DNA of 64,000 bases, taken from Acidovorax sp. YS12. GTDB lineage: Bacteria > Pseudomonadota > Gammaproteobacteria > Burkholderiales > Burkholderiaceae_C. The position numbers were made by a program, and so were the translations under genes. This document shows positions 16,952-25,894 of this stretch, piece by piece. Position 1 is the first letter of the stretch, and the number at the start of each line of letters is the position of its first letter. The notes below the pieces were generated by a model. It worked only from the letters and a program-made list of their open reading frames with translations. It had not been told where the DNA came from and searched no databases. The DNA lies in the NCBI GenBank assembly GCA_021496925.1, contig CP053915.1, positions 2,537,260-2,601,259 on the forward strand, read 5' to 3'.

Positions 16952-17692
16952 ATGGACCGCATCATCTACACCTCCATGACCGGCGCCAGCGCCGCCGCGC
17001 ACCGGCAGGCGGTGCTGTCCAACAACCTGGCCAACGTCTCCACCAACGGCTTCCGCGCCGAGATGTCCACCTTCCGCTCCGTGCCCATGCAGGGCGACGG
17101 CGCGACCACCCGGGTGTTCGCGCTGGAGGCCACGTCGGGCCATGTGCAGACCCCCGGCCCGGTGCAGCGCACGGGCCGCAACCTGGACGCCATGGCCACG
17201 GGCAACGCCTGGTTCGCCGTGCAGGGCCTGGACGGCACCGAGGCCTACACGCGCGCGGGCTCGCTCCAGGTCACGCAGGCGGGCCAGCTGGTGACCAGCA
17301 CCGGGCTGCCCGTGCTGTCCGACGGCGGCGCGCCCATCGACGTGCCGCCCGGCGCCGAGATCACGCTCGGCGCCGACGGCACCATCACCGCCCAGACGGC
17401 GGGCCAGCCCCCGGCGCCGGTGGGCCGCATCAAGCTGGCCACGCCGGGCCTGGACGACCCGCTGCAGCGCGGCGACGACGGGCTGTTCCGCGCCGCCTCG
17501 GGCAATCCGCTGGCGCAGGACCCGAACGCCACGCTGCTGTCCGGCGCGCTGGAGGGCTCGAACGTCAACGCCGTCGAGTCCATGGTCGGCATGATCGCCG
17601 CCGCGCGCCAGTTCGAGCAGCAGATGCGCCTGCTGCAAACCGCCGAATCCAGCGACAAGAGCGCCGCCCAGCTGCTCAGCATCAACGGCTGA
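16952..17692 (+). CDS. flgF: Flagellar proximal rod protein FlgF
   Basis: 246 aa; rod family. Confidence 0.9.
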
Positions 17693-17712
17693 CGCGGCCG
17701 AAGGAGAACACC

Positions 17713-18495
17713 ATGATCAATTCCCTGTGGATCGCCAAGACCGGCATGACCGCCCAGCAGACCCAGCTGGACGTGATCTCGCACAACCTCGCCAACGTCT
17801 CGACCAACGGCTTCAAGCGCAACAACGCCGTGTTCGAGGACCTGATCTACCAGAACCTGCGCCAGGTCGGCTCGCAGACCACCGAGCAGAACCAACTGCC
17901 CACCGGCCTGCACCTGGGCCTGGGCGTGCGCACGGTGGCCACCAGCCGCACCTTCACCCAGGGCAGCCTGCAGCAGTCGAACAACAGCCTGGACGTGGCC
18001 ATCAACGGCAACGGTTTCTTCGAGGTCAACCTGCCCGACGGCACCATCGGCTACACGCGCGACGGCTCGTTCCAGGTCGATGCGCAGGGGCGCCTGGTCA
18101 CCTCCAGCGGCCTGCCGGTGGCCAACGGCATCACCATCCCGGCCAACGCCACCAAGGTCAGCATCAGCGCCGACGGCGTGGTGTCGGCCACCGTGCCCGG
18201 CAACGCCCAGCCGCAGCAGGTGGGCAACCTGGCCATGTCCACCTTCATCAACGCCGCCGGGCTGGAGCCCGTGGGGCAGAACATGTACAAGGAATCGGCC
18301 GCCTCCGGCCAGCCGCAGCAGGGCACGCCGGGCACCAACGGCCTGGGCTACATCAAGCAGGGTTTCCTGGAGGCATCGAACGTCAACGTGGTGGAGGAGC
18401 TGGTCAGCATGATCCAGACCCAGCGCGCCTACGAGATGAACTCCAAGGCCATCTCGACCAGCGACCAGATGCTGGCCAAGCTCTCCCAGCTGTGA
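17713..18495 (+). CDS. flgG: Flagellar distal rod protein FlgG
   Basis: 260 aa; highly conserved FlgG. Confidence 0.92.
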
Positions 18496-18503
18496 GGTTC
18501 GCC

Positions 18504-19202
18504 ATGAGCACCGCCCTGCGCCTCGCCCTGCCCGCCCTGGTGGCGGCCCTGGCGGCCCTCGCCACCGGCTGCGCCAGCATGAACCCGCCGCCGCCCGTGG
18601 ACGTGCTGCCCACCGCGCCGCCGCCGCTGTCCGCCATGCCGCAGCAGCACACGGCCGCCCCGCCCACGGGCAGCCTGTTCCACGCGGCGCGCTACCGCCC
18701 CGCGCTCGAAGACCCGCGCGCACGCCTGGTGGGCGACGTGGTCACCATCCGCATCAGCGAGCAGACCTCGGCCACGCAGAACTCGACCTCCAACGTCAGC
18801 CGCAACCCCAAGGTCAGCGGCAGCATCACCGCCCTGCCCTTCGTCGGCGGCAACCTGGCCGACAAGACGGCCATCGGCGCCGAATACTCCAACGCCTTCG
18901 AGGGCGGCGGCAAGACGCAAAGCACCAACACCTTCACCAGCAACATCACCGCCATCGTCAGCGAGGTGCTGCCCAACGGCCACCTGGTCATCGCTGGCGA
19001 GAAGCAGGTCGGCGTGAACCGCAGCGTGGACGTGCTGCGCTTTTCCGGCACCATCGACCCGCGCCGCATCGCCCCCGGCAACATCATCGACTCGCAGTAC
19101 GTGGCCAACGTGCGCGTGGTCTCGCGCGGCCTGGGCGAGCAGGCCGAGGCCCAGGCCATGGGCTGGCTCGGGCGCTTCTTCAACAGCGTCACGCCGTTCT
19201 GA
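18504..19202 (+). CDS. flgH: Flagellar L-ring lipoprotein FlgH
   Basis: Lipobox 'LATGCASM'. Start is an internal ATG of the 491-aa track ORF. No flgI follows. Confidence 0.88.
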   Translation: MSTALRLALPALVAALAALATGCASMNPPPPVDVLPTAPPPLSAMPQQHTAAPPTGSLFHAARYRPALEDPRARLVGDVVTIRISEQTSATQNSTSNVSRNPKVSGSITALPFVGGNLADKTAIGAEYSNAFEGGGKTQSTNTFTSNITAIVSEVLPNGHLVIAGEKQVGVNRSVDVLRFSGTIDPRRIAPGNIIDSQYVANVRVVSRGLGEQAEAQAMGWLGRFFNSVTPF

Positions 19203-19214
19203 CCCGCTCCTTTC

Positions 19215-19303
19215 TTGATAGCTGGCAGCGCTTGCTGCACAAGGATTTCAGCAACAAAAGCACCTGAAAACCTTGTACGACAAGCGCTAGCCGCTATCAA
19301 AAA
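19215..19303. repeat. REP-like palindromic element, long-spacer variant
   Basis: GATAGCTGGCAGCGCTTG-N46-CAAGCGCTAGCCGCTATC with an inner inverted repeat. Confidence 0.55.
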
Positions 19304-19337
19304 TGATTCCCCGTGGCCAATGGGACAATGCGCCCCC

Positions 19338-20381
19338 ATGACCGCCACCCTCGACACCCTCACGATCACCCGCCCCGACGACTGGCACCTGCACGTGCGC
19401 GACGGCGCGCCCCTGGCCACCGTGGTGCCGCACACGGCCGCGCAGTTCGGCCGCGCCATCATCATGCCCAACCTGCGCCCGCCCGTGACCACGGCCGCGC
19501 AGGCGCTCGACTACAAGCAGCGCATCCTCGCCGCCGTGCCTGCGGGCGTGGCGTTCGAGCCGCTGATGACGCTGTACCTCACCGACAACCTGGCGCCCGC
19601 GGAAATCGCCCGGGCCCGGGACGCGGGCGTGGTCGCGGCCAAGCTCTACCCCGCCGGCGCCACCACCAACAGCGACGCGGGCGTGACCGACCTGCGCAAG
19701 ATCCACAAGACGCTCGAAGCCATGCAGCAGGCCGGCATGCTGCTGCTGGTGCACGGCGAGGTGACCAGCCCCGACATCGACCTGTTCGACCGCGAGGCCG
19801 TGTTCATCGAGCAGCAGCTCATCCCGCTGCGCCGCGACTTCCCCGGCCTCAAGATCGTCTTCGAGCACATCACCACCCGCGAAGCCGCGCAGTACGTGGC
19901 CGAGGCCGGCCCCTGCACCGCCGCCACCATCACCGCGCACCACCTGCTGTACAACCGCAACGCCCTCTTCACCGGCGGCATCCGCCCGCACTGGTACTGC
20001 CTGCCGGTGCTCAAGCGCGAGGTGCACCGCCAGGCGCTGGTGCAGGCCGCCACCAGCGGCAGCGCGAAATTCTTCCTCGGCACCGACAGCGCGCCGCACC
20101 CCGCGCACCTCAAGGAACACGCCACGGGCTGCGCCGGCTGCTACACCGCGCACGCCGCCATGGAGCTGTACGCCGAGGCCTTCGACAACGCCGGCGCGCT
20201 CGACAAGCTCGAAGCCTTCGCCAGCTTCCACGGCCCGGCCTTCTACGGCCTGCCGCGCAACCAGGGCACCATCACCCTGCGCCGCGAAAGCTGGACGCCG
20301 CCCGAGCGCTTCGCCTTCGGCGAGGCCGAGCTCAAGCCCCTGCGCGCGGGCGAAGCGCTGCCGTGGCGCCTGGTGGACTGA
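19338..20381 (+). CDS. pyrC: Dihydroorotase (homodimeric type)
   Basis: '[12 protein letters not shown]', '[12 protein letters not shown]', 'LGTDSAPH' are colinear with E. coli PyrC. Confidence 0.9.
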
Positions 20382-21727
20382 TGCCCGCTGCGCTCCCCTC
20401 GGCACCAAACACGGCCCGCAATATGGCCGTGTTCATTGACGCAGACAACTTGTGCGACCCAACGGCACTCGATCATGTCCTGACTGATCTGCGCCAGCGT
20501 GCCGAGCGGGTGCTATACAAGCGCGCCTACGGACGGGCAGAGAGCCTGAAAGCCATCGAATCCGTACTCTGGCGCCATGGCGTGCGCCCCGTCGCCAACA
20601 TGATCGTTAACAAGGTGACAACCGACAGTGCCCTTGTCATCGATGCGGTTGAAGCGGTGTGCACCAACACGATTGATGCCGTTGCCATTTGCTCTGGCGA
20701 CGCAGACTTCGTTCCGCTGGCCACCTGGTTGCGCGAAAAGGGCTGCCAAGTATGGTGTTTCAGCTTGGCCGACCGGATTTTTGCGAATCCAGAGAGCTTC
20801 TACGATGACGTGGTGCTGATGGAGCTAGTGGATTTGCCCCCGCCAAGTTCAACGGCTGCGCCAGCCACGCCCCCTGCGGTTCCTCCTGCCAATCCAACGC
20901 TGACAGATGCAGTGCAGCAGGTTTTGACAGCCTTTCCTGCCTTGCGCGACGGGCAGCCACAGCACCTGAACCACGTGGTAGCAGCTTTACGTCAACAGGG
21001 TGTCCTGGGCAAATCGGACAAAACGGTTGCATGGTTTCGCCAGCATGCAAAAGCATTCCGCCTATCGCCCGATGTGGCCCCGAACCAGATTTGCTATGCC
21101 CCTCCGTCGAAGACTGCGCCGCCGATGACCGGCGCTTCTGCTGCCTTGTGCCAGAACACACAGGTGATGGCTCTTTTGCGGCAAGCCGTGCAGGCCACCC
21201 AGGACGCTCAGGGCTGGGCCCTCGTTAGCGCCATGCGCACGCACCTGGGAGACAAGACAGTCTTCGATACCCGCGCCCATGGCTTCGCCACGCTGACCAA
21301 ACTGCTCGCAGCCACAGGAGCATTCGAGCTTCGCGGCACGGGGACACCCCAGGTTGCAGTGCGCGTGACCGCTGCAGCTCTGCCTGTGCCTGCTTCTGTG
21401 ACTGCGCCAGTTGTGATTACATGGCCTTGTATATCCGGCAGGCGCGTAGCCCCGCCCCTGCCTGCGCCGTTACATGCGCTGCGCGCCGCCTTGCTACAAC
21501 TTGCCACGCAACGTGTGCAGCGCGAAGACGTATTCAAGGCTGTGCCTGAATTGGTTTTTGGCGCTCCCTGTGCTCTCCATTCAGTGGCGGGACGCCTGCG
21601 CGAGCATGGGCTGCTCGGGCCATCGCAATCAGCCCTGCGCATTCTGGAACGCTATCCGCAGTCGTTTGAGGTCAACCTTCGCCACTATCCACAGAGCGTG
21701 CGCCATATCAGCTCCGTCGCAGCCTGA
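20381..21727 (+). CDS. NYN-domain (PIN-like RNase) protein with three OST-HTH/LOTUS domains; GC is lower than surroundings
   Basis: 'MAVFIDADNL...AICSGDADFVPL' LabA/NYN motifs followed by three ~70-aa LOTUS-like repeats. GC ~55% by eye. Start overlaps pyrC stop; alternative start at 20423. Confidence 0.7.
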   Translation: MPAALPSAPNTARNMAVFIDADNLCDPTALDHVLTDLRQRAERVLYKRAYGRAESLKAIESVLWRHGVRPVANMIVNKVTTDSALVIDAVEAVCTNTIDAVAICSGDADFVPLATWLREKGCQVWCFSLADRIFANPESFYDDVVLMELVDLPPPSSTAAPATPPAVPPANPTLTDAVQQVLTAFPALRDGQPQHLNHVVAALRQQGVLGKSDKTVAWFRQHAKAFRLSPDVAPNQICYAPPSKTAPPMTGASAALCQNTQVMALLRQAVQATQDAQGWALVSAMRTHLGDKTVFDTRAHGFATLTKLLAATGAFELRGTGTPQVAVRVTAAALPVPASVTAPVVITWPCISGRRVAPPLPAPLHALRAALLQLATQRVQREDVFKAVPELVFGAPCALHSVAGRLREHGLLGPSQSALRILERYPQSFEVNLRHYPQSVRHISSVAA

Positions 21728-21730
21728 AAC

Positions 21731-22507
21731 ATGCCTGCCTCTATCCCTAGCATCGACTGGCAGCCCCCCTGGCTCCAAGGCCTGCCGCGCGTGTCCATGT
21801 CACCGGATCTGGCACGGGTGCACCAGGCGCTGAACGCCGCCGGCCCGTGCCCGGTGCGCTTCGTGCCGCAAGACGCCCTGCCCCCGGGCATGGCCTACGA
21901 GCAGTTCATCCACGCCACCGGCCAGGTGCCCACGCGCGACAACCTGCACGACTTCTTCAACGGCCTCGTCTGGCTGCGCTTCCCGCAGGCCAAGCGGCGC
22001 CTGAACCAGCTGCACGCCCAGGCCATCGCGGCGCAGGGCGTGGGCGCCACGCGCGGGCCGCTGCGCGATGCGGCCACGCTGCTCGACGAAAACGGCGCCC
22101 TGCTGCTGGCGCCCGAGGCGCTGTGGCAGGCGCTGCGCGCGCGCCAATGGCGCCGGCTGTTCGTGGAGCTGCGCCCGCTGTGGCGCCAGGCGCGGCTGGC
22201 GGTGTTCGGCCACGCGCTGCTGGAGCAGCTGGTTCACCCGCGAAAACCGCTCACAGCCCATGTGTACCAAGCGCGAACAGCTCCCGATTCGGTAGCAGAC
22301 CTGGACGCCTGGCTGGCCGCCGACCTCGACGCCGCACACCTGGCGGCCAAGCCCTTCACGCCGCTGCCGGTGCTGGGCGTGCCCGGCTGGTGGCCGGAGA
22401 ACGAGAACTTTTCCTTCTATGATGACTCCCTCGTTTTCCGCAGCGCCCGGCCGAACCCCAAGAACCACACAACAGGCCCCGTCCCCGCTGCCCGCCGCGG
22501 CGCTTGA
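21731..22507 (+). CDS. DUF3025-like conserved hypothetical protein
   Basis: 258 aa; family assignment from memory of the conserved motifs. Confidence 0.45.
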   Translation: MPASIPSIDWQPPWLQGLPRVSMSPDLARVHQALNAAGPCPVRFVPQDALPPGMAYEQFIHATGQVPTRDNLHDFFNGLVWLRFPQAKRRLNQLHAQAIAAQGVGATRGPLRDAATLLDENGALLLAPEALWQALRARQWRRLFVELRPLWRQARLAVFGHALLEQLVHPRKPLTAHVYQARTAPDSVADLDAWLAADLDAAHLAAKPFTPLPVLGVPGWWPENENFSFYDDSLVFRSARPNPKNHTTGPVPAARRGA

Positions 22508-22594
22508 AGCGCGGCGCTCCCGCCCCCATCTGATCCATCCAGTGCCCGCTGCCCGCGCGGCGGCTCTTTTGCATTCCCTTGCGGAGTCCCTTCG

Positions 22595-23473
22595 ATGAAA
22601 CGTATTGCTCTGTTCGTACTCACCAACCTCGCCGTGGTCGTGGTGCTGGGTATCGTCGCCAACCTGCTGGGCGTGAACCGCTACCTCACGGCCAACGGCC
22701 TGAACCTGGGCGCGCTGCTCGGCTTCGCCCTGGTGATGGGCTTCGGCGGCGCCATCATCTCGCTGCTCATCAGCAAGCCCATGGCCAAGTGGAGCGCGGG
22801 CGTGCAGATCATCGACGGCTCGGGCTCGCCCGACGAGCGCTGGATCGTCGAGACCGTACGCGGCTTCGCGCAGAAGGCCGGCATCGGCATGCCCGAGGTC
22901 GGCATCTTCCAGGGCGACCCCAACGCCTTCGCCACCGGGGCGTTCAAGAACTCGGCGCTGGTCGCCGTCTCCACCGGCCTGCTGCAGAACATGACGCGCG
23001 AGGAGGTCGAGGCCGTGATCGGCCACGAGGTGGCGCACATCGCCAACGGCGACATGGTCACCATGACGCTGATCCAGGGCGTGATGAACACCTTCGTGGT
23101 GTTCCTGTCGCGCGTCATCGGCTACGCGGTGGACAGCTTCCTGCGCAAGAACGACGAAAACAGCTCCGGCCCCGGCATCGGCTACATGGTCACCACCATC
23201 GTGCTCGACATCGTGCTGGGCTTCCTGGCCGCCATCATCGTGGCCTGGTTCTCGCGCCAGCGCGAGTTCCGCGCCGACGCCGGCGCCGCCCAGCTCATGG
23301 GCCGCCGCCAGCCCATGATCAACGCCCTGGCGCGCCTGGGCGGGGTGCACGCGGGCGAGCTGCCCAAGAGCATGGCCGCCATGGGCATCGCCGGCGGCAT
23401 CGGCCAGCTGTTCTCCACCCACCCGCCGATAGAACAACGCATCGCGGCTCTGCAGAACGCGCAGCAGGGCTGA
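22595..23473 (+). CDS. htpX: Membrane zinc metalloprotease HtpX (M48)
   Basis: '[10 protein letters not shown]' zincin motif, 4 TM segments, ~290 aa. Confidence 0.9.
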
Positions 23474-23490
23474 CATCGCACCATGGACAC

Positions 23491-23527
23491 GCCGCCAGCG
23501 GGCCACGCACCCCTGGCGGCTTTTTCT
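23491..23527 (+). terminator. Rho-independent terminator after htpX
   Basis: GCCGCCAG-N14-CTGGCGGC followed by TTTTTCTT. Confidence 0.5.
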
Positions 23528-23635
23528 TGCCCGGGGGGCCTGGCCTCCGCTTTACCCCGGCTTTACGCCGCGCGGTCAACAGCCCTGGCGGTGGCGCGTT
23601 GAACAGACAGGCCAACGCCATACAAGGAGTGCTCC

Positions 23636-24118
23636 ATGCCCGCCATCGCCTCTGTGCCCGCCCGCCTCGGCCGCCACCTGCTGGGTGCCGGACTGCTGGG
23701 CGGCGCCTTGCTGCTGGCCGGCTGCGCCGTGGGGCCCATGGTTCCGGTCTATCCGGGCGACGCGGCCATGGTGGCGCAGCCGTACACCACGTATGAAACC
23801 TACGGCACCTATGGCACGTACGCGCCCTACGGTTACAGCTATAGCGTGCAGCCGGTCTACCCGGCGGTGGTTCCGCCTCCCGTGGTCTGGATCGGTGGCA
23901 CCTGGCGCAGCCGCCCGGACTACCGCCGCCCGCCCGGCCCGCCGCCGCATTGGGGCGGCCGTCCCGGCCCCGGCCCCGGCCCCGGCCCTGGTCCCGGCCC
24001 GGGCTGGCACAGGCCCCCACAGGGTGGACCTGGCCCGGGGCGCGGGCCCGGCCATGCCGGGCCGCCGCCTCCGGGCGACAGGCCATCGCTACCCGGCAGC
24101 CGGGGCGGCGGGCGTTGA
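23636..24118 (+). CDS. Lipoprotein with Tyr/Gly-rich region and a (GPGP)n low-complexity tract
   Basis: Lipobox 'LLAGCAV'. Perfect GPGPGPGPGPGPG is encoded by a ccccggc-type tandem repeat near 23950-24010. Confidence 0.5.
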   Translation: MPAIASVPARLGRHLLGAGLLGGALLLAGCAVGPMVPVYPGDAAMVAQPYTTYETYGTYGTYAPYGYSYSVQPVYPAVVPPPVVWIGGTWRSRPDYRRPPGPPPHWGGRPGPGPGPGPGPGPGWHRPPQGGPGPGRGPGHAGPPPPGDRPSLPGSRGGGR

Positions 24119-24132
24119 ACGGCCGCTCTCCA

Positions 24133-24180
24133 TTTGATAGCTGCCAGCGCTTGACCAGCAAGGGCCAGAGGCCCTTTTGG
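24133..24180. repeat. REP-like element, half-site variant (GATAGCTGCCAGCGCTTG plus GGGCCAGAGGCCC hairpin)
   Basis: Left arm identical to the family consensus; right arm replaced by a short GC hairpin. Confidence 0.45.
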
Positions 24181-24187
24181 CTCGAAA

Positions 24188-25894
24188 TTACAGCAGGCTG
24201 CGCGCCACGGCCTCGCCGACCTTGATGCCATCGACACCGGCCGAGAGAATGCCGCCCGCGTAGCCCGCGCCCTCGCCCGCGGGGAACAGCCCGCGCGTGT
24301 TGGGGCTTTGCAGGCTGTCGTCGCGGTCGATGCGCAGGGGGGCCGAGGTGCGCGTCTCCACGCCGGTCAGCACCGCGTCGGGCATGTCATAGCCCCGGAT
24401 CTTGCGGCCGAAGGCGGGCAGGGCCTCGCGCATGGCCTCGATGGCGTAGCCCGGCAGCGCGGGCGCCAGGTCGCCCAGGGCCACGCCCGGCTTGTAGGAA
24501 GGCTGCACCGTGCCGAACTGGCGCGAGGCCCGGCCCGCCAGGAAATCCCCCACCAGTTGGCCCGGCGCGCTGTAGTCGCTGCCGCCCAGCACGTAGGCGT
24601 TGGATTCCAATTGGCGCTGCAGCACGATGCCGGCCAGCGGGTGGAACGCGCCCGGGGGCAGCGCCTCCACACCGTGGGTGGCGCCCAGGGCGGCCTCGAA
24701 GGCAGCCGGGTCGTGCGGGTAGTCCTCCGGGCCGATGCCCACGACCATGCCGGCGTTGGCGTTGCGCTCGGCGCGCGAATACTGGCTCATGCCGTTGGTG
24801 ACCACACGGCCCGGCTCGCTGGTGGCGGCCACCACCGTCCCGCCCGGGCACATGCAGAAGCTGTAGACCGAGCGGCCGTTGGCGGCATGGTGCACGAGCT
24901 TGTAGTCGGCCGCGCCCAGCAGCGGATGGCCCGCGTGGCGGCCCCAGCGCGCACGGTCGATCACGCCTTGCGGGTGCTCGATGCGAAAGCCCACCGAGAA
25001 GGGCTTGGCCTGCATCTGCACGCCGCGCGCGTGCAGCATGGCGAAGGCATCGCGGGCGCTGTGCCCCACGGCCAGCACCACCTGCGCGGCGGCGAGTTCG
25101 TAGCCCTGGCCCGTGGCCAGGTCCTGCACCTGCAGGCCGCGCACCTGGCGGCCTGCCGGGCCATCGGCCAGCAGCAGGTCGGTCACGCGCTGCTCGAAGC
25201 GCACCTCGCCGCCCAGCGCGATGATCTGCGCGCGCAGGTTCTCCACCATCTTCACCAGGCGGAAGGTGCCGATGTGCGGGTGCGCCTCGTACAGGATCTC
25301 GGGCGGCGCGCCGGCATCGACGAACTCCTGCAGCACCTTGCGGCCCAGGTGGCGCGGGTCCTTGATCTGGCTGTAGAGCTTGCCGTCGGAGAACGTGCCG
25401 GCCCCGCCTTCGCCGAACTGCACGTTGCTCTCCGGGTGGAGCTGGCGCTTGCGCCACAGGCCCCAGGTGTCCCGGGTGCGCTCGCGCACCGGCTTGCCGC
25501 GCTCCAGCACGATGGGCCGGAAACCCATCTGCGCCAGCACCAGCGCCGCAAAGATGCCGCAGGGGCCGAAGCCCACCACCACGGGGCGCTGCGCCAGCGT
25601 GGCCGGCGCCCGGCCCACCGGCCGCCAGGCCATGTCGGGCGTGGGCTGGATGTGGACATTGCCCGCATGCCGCGCCAGCAGGGCGGCCTCCTGGGCCGGG
25701 TCGGCCAGGGTGGCATCGACGATGTACACCGCCAGCAGCTCGGCCTTGCGCGCATCGAAGCTGCGCTTGAATACGTGGATGTGCGCGATGGCCTCGGGCG
25801 CAATGCCCAGGGCCTGTGCCGCCGCGGCGTGCAGCGCGGCATCGGGCGATTGCGCTGCGGCGAGCGGCAGCTTGATTTCGGAGAGGCGGATCAT
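24188..25894 (-). CDS. FAD/NAD(P)-binding oxidoreductase (COG2509-type FAD-dependent protein)
   Basis: 568 aa; Rossmann 'VVVGFGPCGIFAALVLAQMG'; colinear with the uncharacterised FAD-dependent dehydrogenase family. Confidence 0.7.
   Translation of the reverse strand: MIRLSEIKLPLAAAQSPDAALHAAAAQALGIAPEAIAHIHVFKRSFDARKAELLAVYIVDATLADPAQEAALLARHAGNVHIQPTPDMAWRPVGRAPATLAQRPVVVGFGPCGIFAALVLAQMGFRPIVLERGKPVRERTRDTWGLWRKRQLHPESNVQFGEGGAGTFSDGKLYSQIKDPRHLGRKVLQEFVDAGAPPEILYEAHPHIGTFRLVKMVENLRAQIIALGGEVRFEQRVTDLLLADGPAGRQVRGLQVQDLATGQGYELAAAQVVLAVGHSARDAFAMLHARGVQMQAKPFSVGFRIEHPQGVIDRARWGRHAGHPLLGAADYKLVHHAANGRSVYSFCMCPGGTVVAATSEPGRVVTNGMSQYSRAERNANAGMVVGIGPEDYPHDPAAFEAALGATHGVEALPPGAFHPLAGIVLQRQLESNAYVLGGSDYSAPGQLVGDFLAGRASRQFGTVQPSYKPGVALGDLAPALPGYAIEAMREALPAFGRKIRGYDMPDAVLTGVETRTSAPLRIDRDDSLQSPNTRGLFPAGEGAGYAGGILSAGVDGIKVGEAVARSLL

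Follow-up and report, generated by a model that had tools for sequence, protein, structure and literature searches.

A predicted NYN-LOTUS ribonuclease gene as an accessory cassette in the pyrC-DUF3025 operon of Acidovorax sp. YS12 and related bacteria

Why does a gene of unusually low GC content lie in the middle of a housekeeping operon, and what might its product do there? The question is raised by a stretch of 64,000 nucleotides from Acidovorax sp. YS12 (contig CP053915.1, positions 2,537,260 to 2,601,259), referred to below as the window, in which a gene for a protein with an NYN nuclease domain and modules of the LOTUS type is located between pyrC and a DUF3025 gene. The best explanation overall, held here with moderate confidence, is that the gene specifies an accessory, MARF1-like stand-alone RNase that is expressed from the pyrC operon. 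What distinguishes it is the presence of three modules, two of which are of an apparently undescribed LOTUS-like kind, its location in a polymorphic slot in the pyrC-DUF3025 operon, and a codon-usage deficit that extends over the whole lineage of the gene.

The initial annotation had placed an open reading frame (ORF) between pyrC and DUF3025 and had noted that its start overlaps the pyrC stop. Both observations were borne out: the ORF at 20381-21727 (+) has 448 codons, TIGR00856 identifies the upstream and PF11227 the downstream gene, and the overlap, with the sequence TGATG, is also kept in orthologues. The operon is made up of the following features, given in window coordinates:

19338..20381, plus strand: pyrC (dihydroorotase), the upstream gene of the operon (TIGR00856, 4.2e-135)
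20379..20383, plus strand: TGATG junction of the pyrC stop and the NYN start, sharing one base, the A of the stop being the A of the ATG at 20381
20381..21727, plus strand: NYN-LOTUS gene of the 'type A' lineage, encoding 448 amino acids (aa)
21731..22507, plus strand: DUF3025 gene (PF11227, 1.1e-77), 3 nucleotides (nt) past the NYN stop
22546..22573, plus strand: terminator-like GC hairpin with T-run, after DUF3025

A product of identical length was obtained by independent gene callers on three metagenome contigs, where it directly follows pyrC; the NYN domain and the DUF3025 protein of these contigs are identical to those of the window and pyrC is 98.8-100% identical. The probable start of pyrC is the ATG at 19338, the longest pyrC ORF showing homology only from residue 49. 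On contig L027, in which the NYN domain and the DUF3025 protein are 100% and pyrC is 99.7% identical to those of the window, the pyrC product was called as 347 aa. Two samples of loci were used for comparison. The first was fetched with NYN type-A peptide patterns and consists of 22 Comamonadaceae/Burkholderiales loci, all of them carriers, while the second was ascertained through DUF3025 and comprises 80 metagenome loci, 69 of which have a readable junction. An overlap of the pyrC stop with the NYN start, in the form of ATGA, TGATG or TAATG, is seen in most of the 22 type-A loci. A downstream ATG at 20423 was considered as the start and rejected, as the corresponding residue, Met15, is not conserved and is replaced by Leu in 10 of the 22 orthologues; together with the retention of the overlap in most type-A loci, this identifies the overlapping ATG as the conserved start. 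Because the overlap is conserved in orthologues, NYN synthesis is likely to be translationally coupled to that of pyrC through the TGATG sequence. A scan for sigma-70 promoters returned no site, and between pyrC, NYN and DUF3025 neither promoter-like nor terminator-like sites were seen. The hairpin at 22546-22573 is the probable end of the pyrC-NYN-DUF3025 transcription unit. A search of Rfam over positions 18000-24500 yielded a single sub-threshold chance match.

The protein was subdivided as follows on the basis of Pfam matches and of an AlphaFold2 model of all 448 aa, which was built on 70 homologues and has a mean predicted local distance difference test (pLDDT) score of 77.5:

20423..20830, plus strand: NYN/LabA-like PIN-fold nuclease domain, residues 15-150 (PF01936, E 1.7e-19)
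20831..20899, plus strand: Pro/Ala-rich disordered linker, residues 151-173, varying in length among homologues
20900..21097, plus strand: module 1, residues 174-239, a divergent LOTUS-like winged helix ('M1 type')
21131..21367, plus strand: module 2, residues 251-329, a canonical OST-HTH/LOTUS domain (PF12872, 3.9e-7)
21413..21706, plus strand: W..RR..PL..LH.LR motif and helix, then module 3 (residues 362-442), an M1-type LOTUS-like winged helix

The match to PF01936 covers residues 15-129 and scores 71.2 bits against a curated cut-off of 24.2. In the model, residues 12-130 form a Rossmann-like nuclease domain, and a Foldseek search with the whole model returned 2qip (VPA0982) and the MARF1 NYN structures 6fdl/5yaa with a probability of 1.0, E values of 2e-4 to 2e-3 and target-normalised template modelling (TM) scores of 0.57-0.65. 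A profile of five NYN types matches 2qip by sequence as well (3.1e-5); a single-sequence phmmer search against the PDB gave nothing useful. Residues D20, D22, N23, D82, D88, S105, D107 and D109 are invariant among the 70 homologues and in the five NYN types. They make up a conserved signature (DxDN, TD, D, SxDxDF) that maps to where beta-1 and beta-4 end and helix 3 begins. The catalytic residues D178, D246 and D272 of MARF1, together with S270, occupy matching positions (PMC6217404), a putative correspondence drawn by position in the secondary structure and not by superposition. With its acidic signature intact, the domain is predicted by analogy to be a metal-dependent ribonuclease; none of the bacterial members of the NYN.COG1432 cluster has been assayed, according to PMC5499597. 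The segment SLADRIFANPESFYDDVVLMELV (residues 128-150, positions 20762-20830) is almost invariant in type-A homologues, yet is modelled by AlphaFold2 with a pLDDT below 50; it may fold only upon dimerisation or upon binding of a substrate or partner.

The initial annotation had described the remainder of the protein as three tandem LOTUS domains. Pfam confirmed the NYN domain and module 2 of that architecture, and modules 1 and 3 had to be recognised by comparison of structures and profiles, as members of a divergent subfamily. Behind a region of pLDDT below 50 (residues 130-171), the AlphaFold2 model contains three separate helix/beta-hairpin modules at residues 174-239, 251-329 and 362-442, each with a pLDDT of about 85-90 and joined to each other by disordered linkers. 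The W..RR..PL..LH.LR motif is conserved in homologues, and the stretch from this motif through module 3 is modelled with a pLDDT of about 87-91. Module 2 matches PF12872 over residues 261-324 with 25.9 bits in the whole protein and 30.3 bits as an isolated segment, against a cut-off of 23.8, and is 49% identical to the OST-HTH domain of the canonical Ramlibacter NYN-LOTUS protein. Modules 1 and 3 gave no match to PF12872 at E <= 10, nor did any of 30 M1-type modules at E <= 1. By hhalign, each is homologous to the other (98.4%, E 6.6e-15) and to the second module of other orthologues (99.7%). No signal was obtained with hhalign between modules 1 and 2, and the link of the M1 type to canonical OST-HTH domains is borderline, with a probability of 74% reached solely through the 'module 2B' of orthologues. 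When module 1 was modelled separately (pLDDT 86.5), Foldseek returned winged helices alone, none of them significant. The closest solved folds appear to be LOTUS domains, by a small margin and with 5yad among the top matches, and the M1-module profile found no LOTUS protein among PDB sequences. As the margin over generic winged helices is small, modules 1 and 3 are called 'LOTUS-like' here rather than members of the family. These comparisons point to an undescribed LOTUS-like subfamily that is missed by current domain libraries. The M1-type profile found 232 clusters among 1.84 billion representatives; of the clusters checked, almost every one lies at the C-terminus of an NYN protein. The number of modules among type-A orthologues ranges from one to three. 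The sole M1-type module seen outside an NYN protein (P0377) is fused N-terminally to a PF22549 (ARPP-2) domain.

Several known proteins share parts of this architecture. The bacterial MARF1-like NYN-OST-HTH proteins (LabA-like NYN.COG1432; Anantharaman et al. 2010 as cited in PMC5499597; PMC7498356) share with the window protein a PF01936 NYN domain at the N-terminus, then a linker, then a minimal LOTUS domain, and a canonical protein of this kind is encoded in the corresponding pyrC|DUF3025 slot of Ramlibacter terrae. The window protein differs from it in having three modules instead of one, two of them of a subfamily that Pfam does not recognise; the NYN domains are only 36% identical, and the codon usage of the window gene is aberrant whereas the canonical gene has a host-like GC content at third codon positions (GC3). 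This NYN-OST-HTH architecture has been predicted to form a stand-alone RNA-degradation system (PMC5499597). Eukaryotic MARF1 (Limkain b1) also combines an NYN endoribonuclease with tandem minimal LOTUS domains, and its crystal structures (6fdl/5yaa and 5yad) are among the top matches, although identity in structural alignments is 16-19% and MARF1 has eight LOTUS modules versus three. Unlike MARF1, the window protein has no RRMs and no decapping-complex partners, is encoded in a bacterial operon and is a predicted nuclease. The NYN domain of MARF1 is a Mg2+/Mn2+-dependent endonuclease of single-stranded RNA, and cleavage depends both on its conserved aspartates and on the LOTUS repeats (PMC6217404, PMC6294520). 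Minimal LOTUS domains bind G-rich and G-quadruplex (G4) RNA, G4 binding having been found for one of two bacterial domains tested (PMC7498356). VPA0982 (2qip), the best match in both the sequence-profile and the Foldseek search, and cyanobacterial LabA belong to the same NYN family; in contrast to the window protein they consist of a single NYN domain and lack LOTUS modules. No counterpart of the circadian feedback role of LabA (cited in PMC5499597) is evident at the window locus.

In the NYN-ascertained sample, pyrC is located directly upstream of the NYN gene in 22 of 22 loci and DUF3025 downstream of it in 18, three of the other four loci ending shortly past the NYN gene. The loci come from Acidovorax, Simplicispira, Melaminivora, Variovorax, Xylophilus, Xenophilus, Ottowia and Hylemonella. 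One candidate explanation, a uniformly present ancestral core gene (22/22 syntenic loci), was rejected: as these loci were fetched with NYN type-A peptide patterns, their uniform presence is an ascertainment artefact, and the loci ascertained through DUF3025 overturned it. Among the latter, 53 of 69 slots are empty, with pyrC abutting DUF3025, and the other 16 hold an NYN gene (two of type A, seven of the canonical 'Ramlibacter type', five of the 'Paracidovorax type' and two of the 'Polaromonas type'). Uniform presence with matching GC in all relatives had been named in the initial annotation as the pattern that would speak against its proposal; the slot is, instead, largely empty in the DUF3025-ascertained sample and close relatives differ in its state. 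At the empty junctions inspected, pyrC and DUF3025 often overlap by a few to 16 nt; a 16-nt overlap is present at the empty slot on a contig of which the DUF3025 protein is named Acidovorax soli by NCBI. Other NYN types fill the slot in R. terrae, in a Polaromonas and in a Paracidovorax genome, and in Variovorax, Xenophilus and Xylophilus type A is accompanied by a second paralogue in tandem (A+B). The NYN domain of the window is 29-47% identical to the other types, while pyrC stays at 72-91%. Type A was found solely in Comamonadaceae and always at the pyrC|DUF3025 slot.

The compositional anomaly that had been noted in the initial annotation is real, albeit shallower than the GC content of about 55% given there. 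The NYN gene has a GC content of 61.0%, with a minimum of 57.5% in 400-nt windows, versus 72.0% for pyrC and 71.4% for DUF3025, and it is the lowest-GC 1344-bp stretch in the 64 kb, 0.08% of such windows being equally low. Its GC3 is 0.647, compared with 0.926 ± 0.030 in 33 reference genes (z = -9.3). Rare codons, as defined in the reference set, account for 31.5% of the gene versus a reference-gene median of 4.6% and a maximum of 13%. The compositional signal sits at synonymous sites. GC3 of type A, measured within the NYN domain, is lower than that of pyrC in all 22 type-A loci, and three type-A metagenome loci likewise show the deficit. Even in a host of 52% GC (L012), the type-A gene has a GC3 of 0.35 versus a host value of 0.58. 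Canonical-type NYN genes in the same slot have a host-like GC3 of 0.80-0.99, and the sole locus without a GC3 deficit in one comparison carries an NYN gene of the canonical type. A local effect of mutation or transcription, by which low GC3 would be a property of the slot, was therefore rejected; the deficit belongs to the type-A gene lineage and neither to the slot nor to the host. Codons ending in A or T are spread diffusely over the gene: a single column reaches 70% A/T-ending codons, and the excess variance is confounded by relatedness. An element embedded in the NYN gene at the nucleotide level was also considered and is unsupported, the A/T-ending codons not being position-specific. Since the deficit occurs in every host, and lies below the host value even in L012, an un-ameliorated recent import does not fit. 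The pattern fits a long-resident accessory lineage of which the synonymous sites are under a different pressure. Candidates for this pressure are weak selection on codons when expression is low and selection favouring poor translation of an RNase that may be harmful.

How the gene came to be distributed in this way depends on the weight given to descent and to exchange. It might be an ancestral operon gene that has been inherited vertically and deleted repeatedly, in which case the NYN types would be old tandem paralogues that were differentially lost and low GC3 would reflect very low expression. All NYN-ascertained loci at the same slot, the conserved start/stop overlap, the tandem A+B pairs and the diffuse, position-independent A/T-ending codons agree with such a history, as does the divergence of the type-A NYN domain, with a mean pairwise identity of 79.6% versus 82.2% for pyrC. 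So does a decayed canonical NYN-LOTUS remnant of approximately 340 nt between the pyrC stop and the DUF3025 start of one locus (L047:3661-4000), which reads 'RIALLIDADNSPASKIEAILG*' followed by an OST-HTH-like piece; internal deletion appears to be eroding this NYN cassette. However, distances in type-A NYN correlate poorly with those in pyrC (Spearman 0.22), in contrast to the control pair of DUF3025 and pyrC (0.52), and in a neighbour-joining tree of pyrC and DUF3025 the slot states are interleaved and sister loci differ. Rank orders are reversed in type A and in the canonical type alike. Xenophilus and Ottowia-like loci are 87% identical in NYN and 76-78% in pyrC, UBA9957 and Simplicispira metamorpha are 72% identical in NYN and 90% in pyrC, and Ramlibacter-type NYN is 92-93% identical between loci in which pyrC is just 76-79% identical. 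Moreover, the modules are combined in mosaic fashion: the window protein is closer to the canonical type when its module 2 is compared with the OST-HTH domain (49%) than when the NYN domains are compared (36%), and P0287, which also follows pyrC, consists of a canonical NYN domain, an OST-HTH domain and an M3-type module. A GC3 of 0.65 is also far outside the range of the 33 other genes. Purely vertical descent with loss is considered unlikely on these grounds. The data support horizontal exchange: the gene is not core but accessory, and has been exchanged and lost within one bacterial family.

The explanation of the gene as an accessory, MARF1-like RNase would work as follows. The NYN-LOTUS protein would be made by read-through and translational coupling from pyrC, and would consist of an N-terminal, metal-dependent NYN endonuclease that is tethered via flexible linkers to three LOTUS-type winged-helix modules. 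By analogy, these modules may bind G-rich/G-quadruplex and single-stranded RNA and present it to the NYN nuclease. Rare codons would limit how much of a potentially harmful RNase is made. The cassette would persist as Comamonadaceae inherit it vertically, delete it or exchange it among themselves, the exchange presumably by recombination through the conserved flanks. A number of points weigh against this explanation. For all bacterial NYN-LOTUS proteins, the RNase activity, the specificity for RNA and the coupling are predictions; of the two bacterial LOTUS domains assayed, one failed to bind G4 RNA (PMC7498356); and an equivalent of the fourth aspartate of MARF1, at the end of beta-2, is not evident in this NYN family. 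A freely exchanged accessory gene would not usually have an NYN domain as strongly conserved as this one (about 80%, a level like that of pyrC). The rationale given for the rare codons is post hoc, the diffuse A/T-ending codons fitting relaxed selection and expression tuning alike.

Defence against phages, or a toxin-like function, would provide another reason for a gene to come and go. In one formulation, the slot represents a long-maintained, family-wide polymorphism (at least five NYN-LOTUS types, or empty) under balancing or frequency-dependent selection, each occupant being a one-gene module for RNA-targeting immunity or abortive infection that relies on the transcription and translation of the operon, with rare codons throttling a toxic RNase; this seems quite improbable. 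A simpler formulation, that of a single-gene RNA-targeting defence, abortive-infection or toxin-like module in a core-genome hotspot, is judged very improbable. In favour of such a role, the slot varies in occupancy and in allelic type among close relatives, relatives of the NYN family are common on plasmids, and rare codons are compatible with a toxic product. At a type-A locus from a metagenome-assembled genome (MAG), a 602-aa AAA_15/AAA_21 ATPase is encoded between pyrC and the NYN gene (L002:3202-5010), directly upstream of the latter and with its stop overlapping the NYN start. Its best PADLOC matches are NsnB (7e-22), AriA (2e-21) and GajA (2e-14), and the arrangement resembles an ATPase-plus-nuclease defence pair. 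Hachiman loci contain an embedded MARF1-like NYN gene, HEC-09 (bioRxiv 10.1101/2024.01.29.577857), which is, like the window gene, a single gene combining a helix-turn-helix (HTH) module with a MARF1-like NYN domain in a variable genomic context. However, HEC-09 has the HTH module first and the NYN domain second, is found in a defence-island context instead of a housekeeping operon, and gave no protection against the phages tested (bioRxiv 10.1101/2024.01.29.577857). The sole match in PADLOC-DB 2.0 was a partial NYN match of 17.3 bits (PDLC01154, E 5.7e-4), which is not significant. No partner, antitoxin or sensor gene is present, and the gene is embedded in, and apparently coupled to, a housekeeping operon in core surroundings (pyrC, htpX and flagellar genes). 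Its NYN domain is under strong purifying selection, with about 80% identity across genera, and the other cargo seen in the slot, an LtrA-family gene, is not related to defence.

The initial annotation had proposed horizontal acquisition, and this holds for an accessory gene subject to exchange, given the 53 of 69 empty slots, the patchy states and the low correlation with pyrC (0.22). A recent import of foreign, lower-GC DNA, as a small islet between pyrC and DUF3025 in the recent ancestry of the strain, is scarcely probable: the composition of the gene, its absence from many relatives (including the contig with the A. soli-named DUF3025 protein) and the 208 plasmid records and few phages with distant NYN genes would agree with it, but type A is restricted to Comamonadaceae and to this slot (22/22), its GC3 deficit recurs in every host, and between genera its NYN domain has diverged as far as pyrC has, which implies long residence. 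Nor are hallmarks of mobility seen. No tRNA was found within 10 kb on either side of the NYN gene, flanking repeats are at chance level, there is no integrase-type neighbour, and no close plasmid or phage copies were found, the best matches being 31-41% identical in the NYN domain alone. A type-A donor outside Comamonadaceae was not found either. Of the traits by which genomic islands are recognised, the gene thus has an atypical composition and a variable presence, and lacks mobility hallmarks and a foreign-donor composition.

The slot and its surroundings gave some further observations. Besides NYN genes, an Ottowia MAG has a gene for an LtrA-family membrane protein (PF06772, 3.5e-93) between the NYN gene and DUF3025 (L019:5942-7192, minus strand), so that the slot can hold unrelated cargo. 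In the Variovorax type B protein (L014:5827-6693) and the Paracidovorax-type protein (L029:3097-3996), a long, histone-H1-like linker rich in Lys, Ala and Pro connects the NYN domain to a single M1-type module, with a weak match to PF07382 HC2 on the Paracidovorax-type protein; this linker suggests an additional nucleic-acid-binding segment. Loci with an empty slot, such as L039, L043, L051, L059, L064 and L112:3501-3516, have the start codon of DUF3025 within the 3' end of pyrC. The overlap at empty slots marks pyrC and the uncharacterised DUF3025 gene as a tightly coupled pair across Comamonadaceae, which hints at a functional link between the two. In the literature, DUF3025 appears merely as a neutral gene in a barcode sequencing (BarSeq) study of B. 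cenocepacia. The DUF3025 protein encoded in the window shows 100% identity to that recorded for Acidovorax sp. YS12. The genes surrounding the NYN gene in the window, namely pyrC, DUF3025, htpX and flagellar genes, are core genes. Immediately upstream of pyrC end flgF, flgG and flgH (16952-19202, plus strand), which are not followed by flgI. In Ramlibacter and on the contig with the A. soli-named DUF3025 protein, an ATP-binding cassette (ABC) transporter gene is located upstream of pyrC instead; the conserved block therefore begins at pyrC. Just downstream of htpX, a 160-aa Pro/Gly/Tyr-rich ORF (23636-24118, plus strand; YGTYGTYAPYGYSY, followed by GPGPGPGP runs) has an N-terminal hydrophobic stretch and no Pfam match.

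In conclusion, bacterial NYN-LOTUS ('MARF1-like') proteins are widespread, and none has been characterised in the 15 years since they were predicted to act as stand-alone systems for RNA degradation. The persistently low GC3 of type A across its hosts is a caution against taking low GC3 as a sign of recent foreign origin. A slot in a two-gene housekeeping operon that is either empty or filled with one or two cassettes in close, culturable relatives constitutes a tractable natural experiment: in Acidovorax, Variovorax and Ramlibacter, the phenotypes of gain and loss, the RNA targets and translational coupling are directly comparable.

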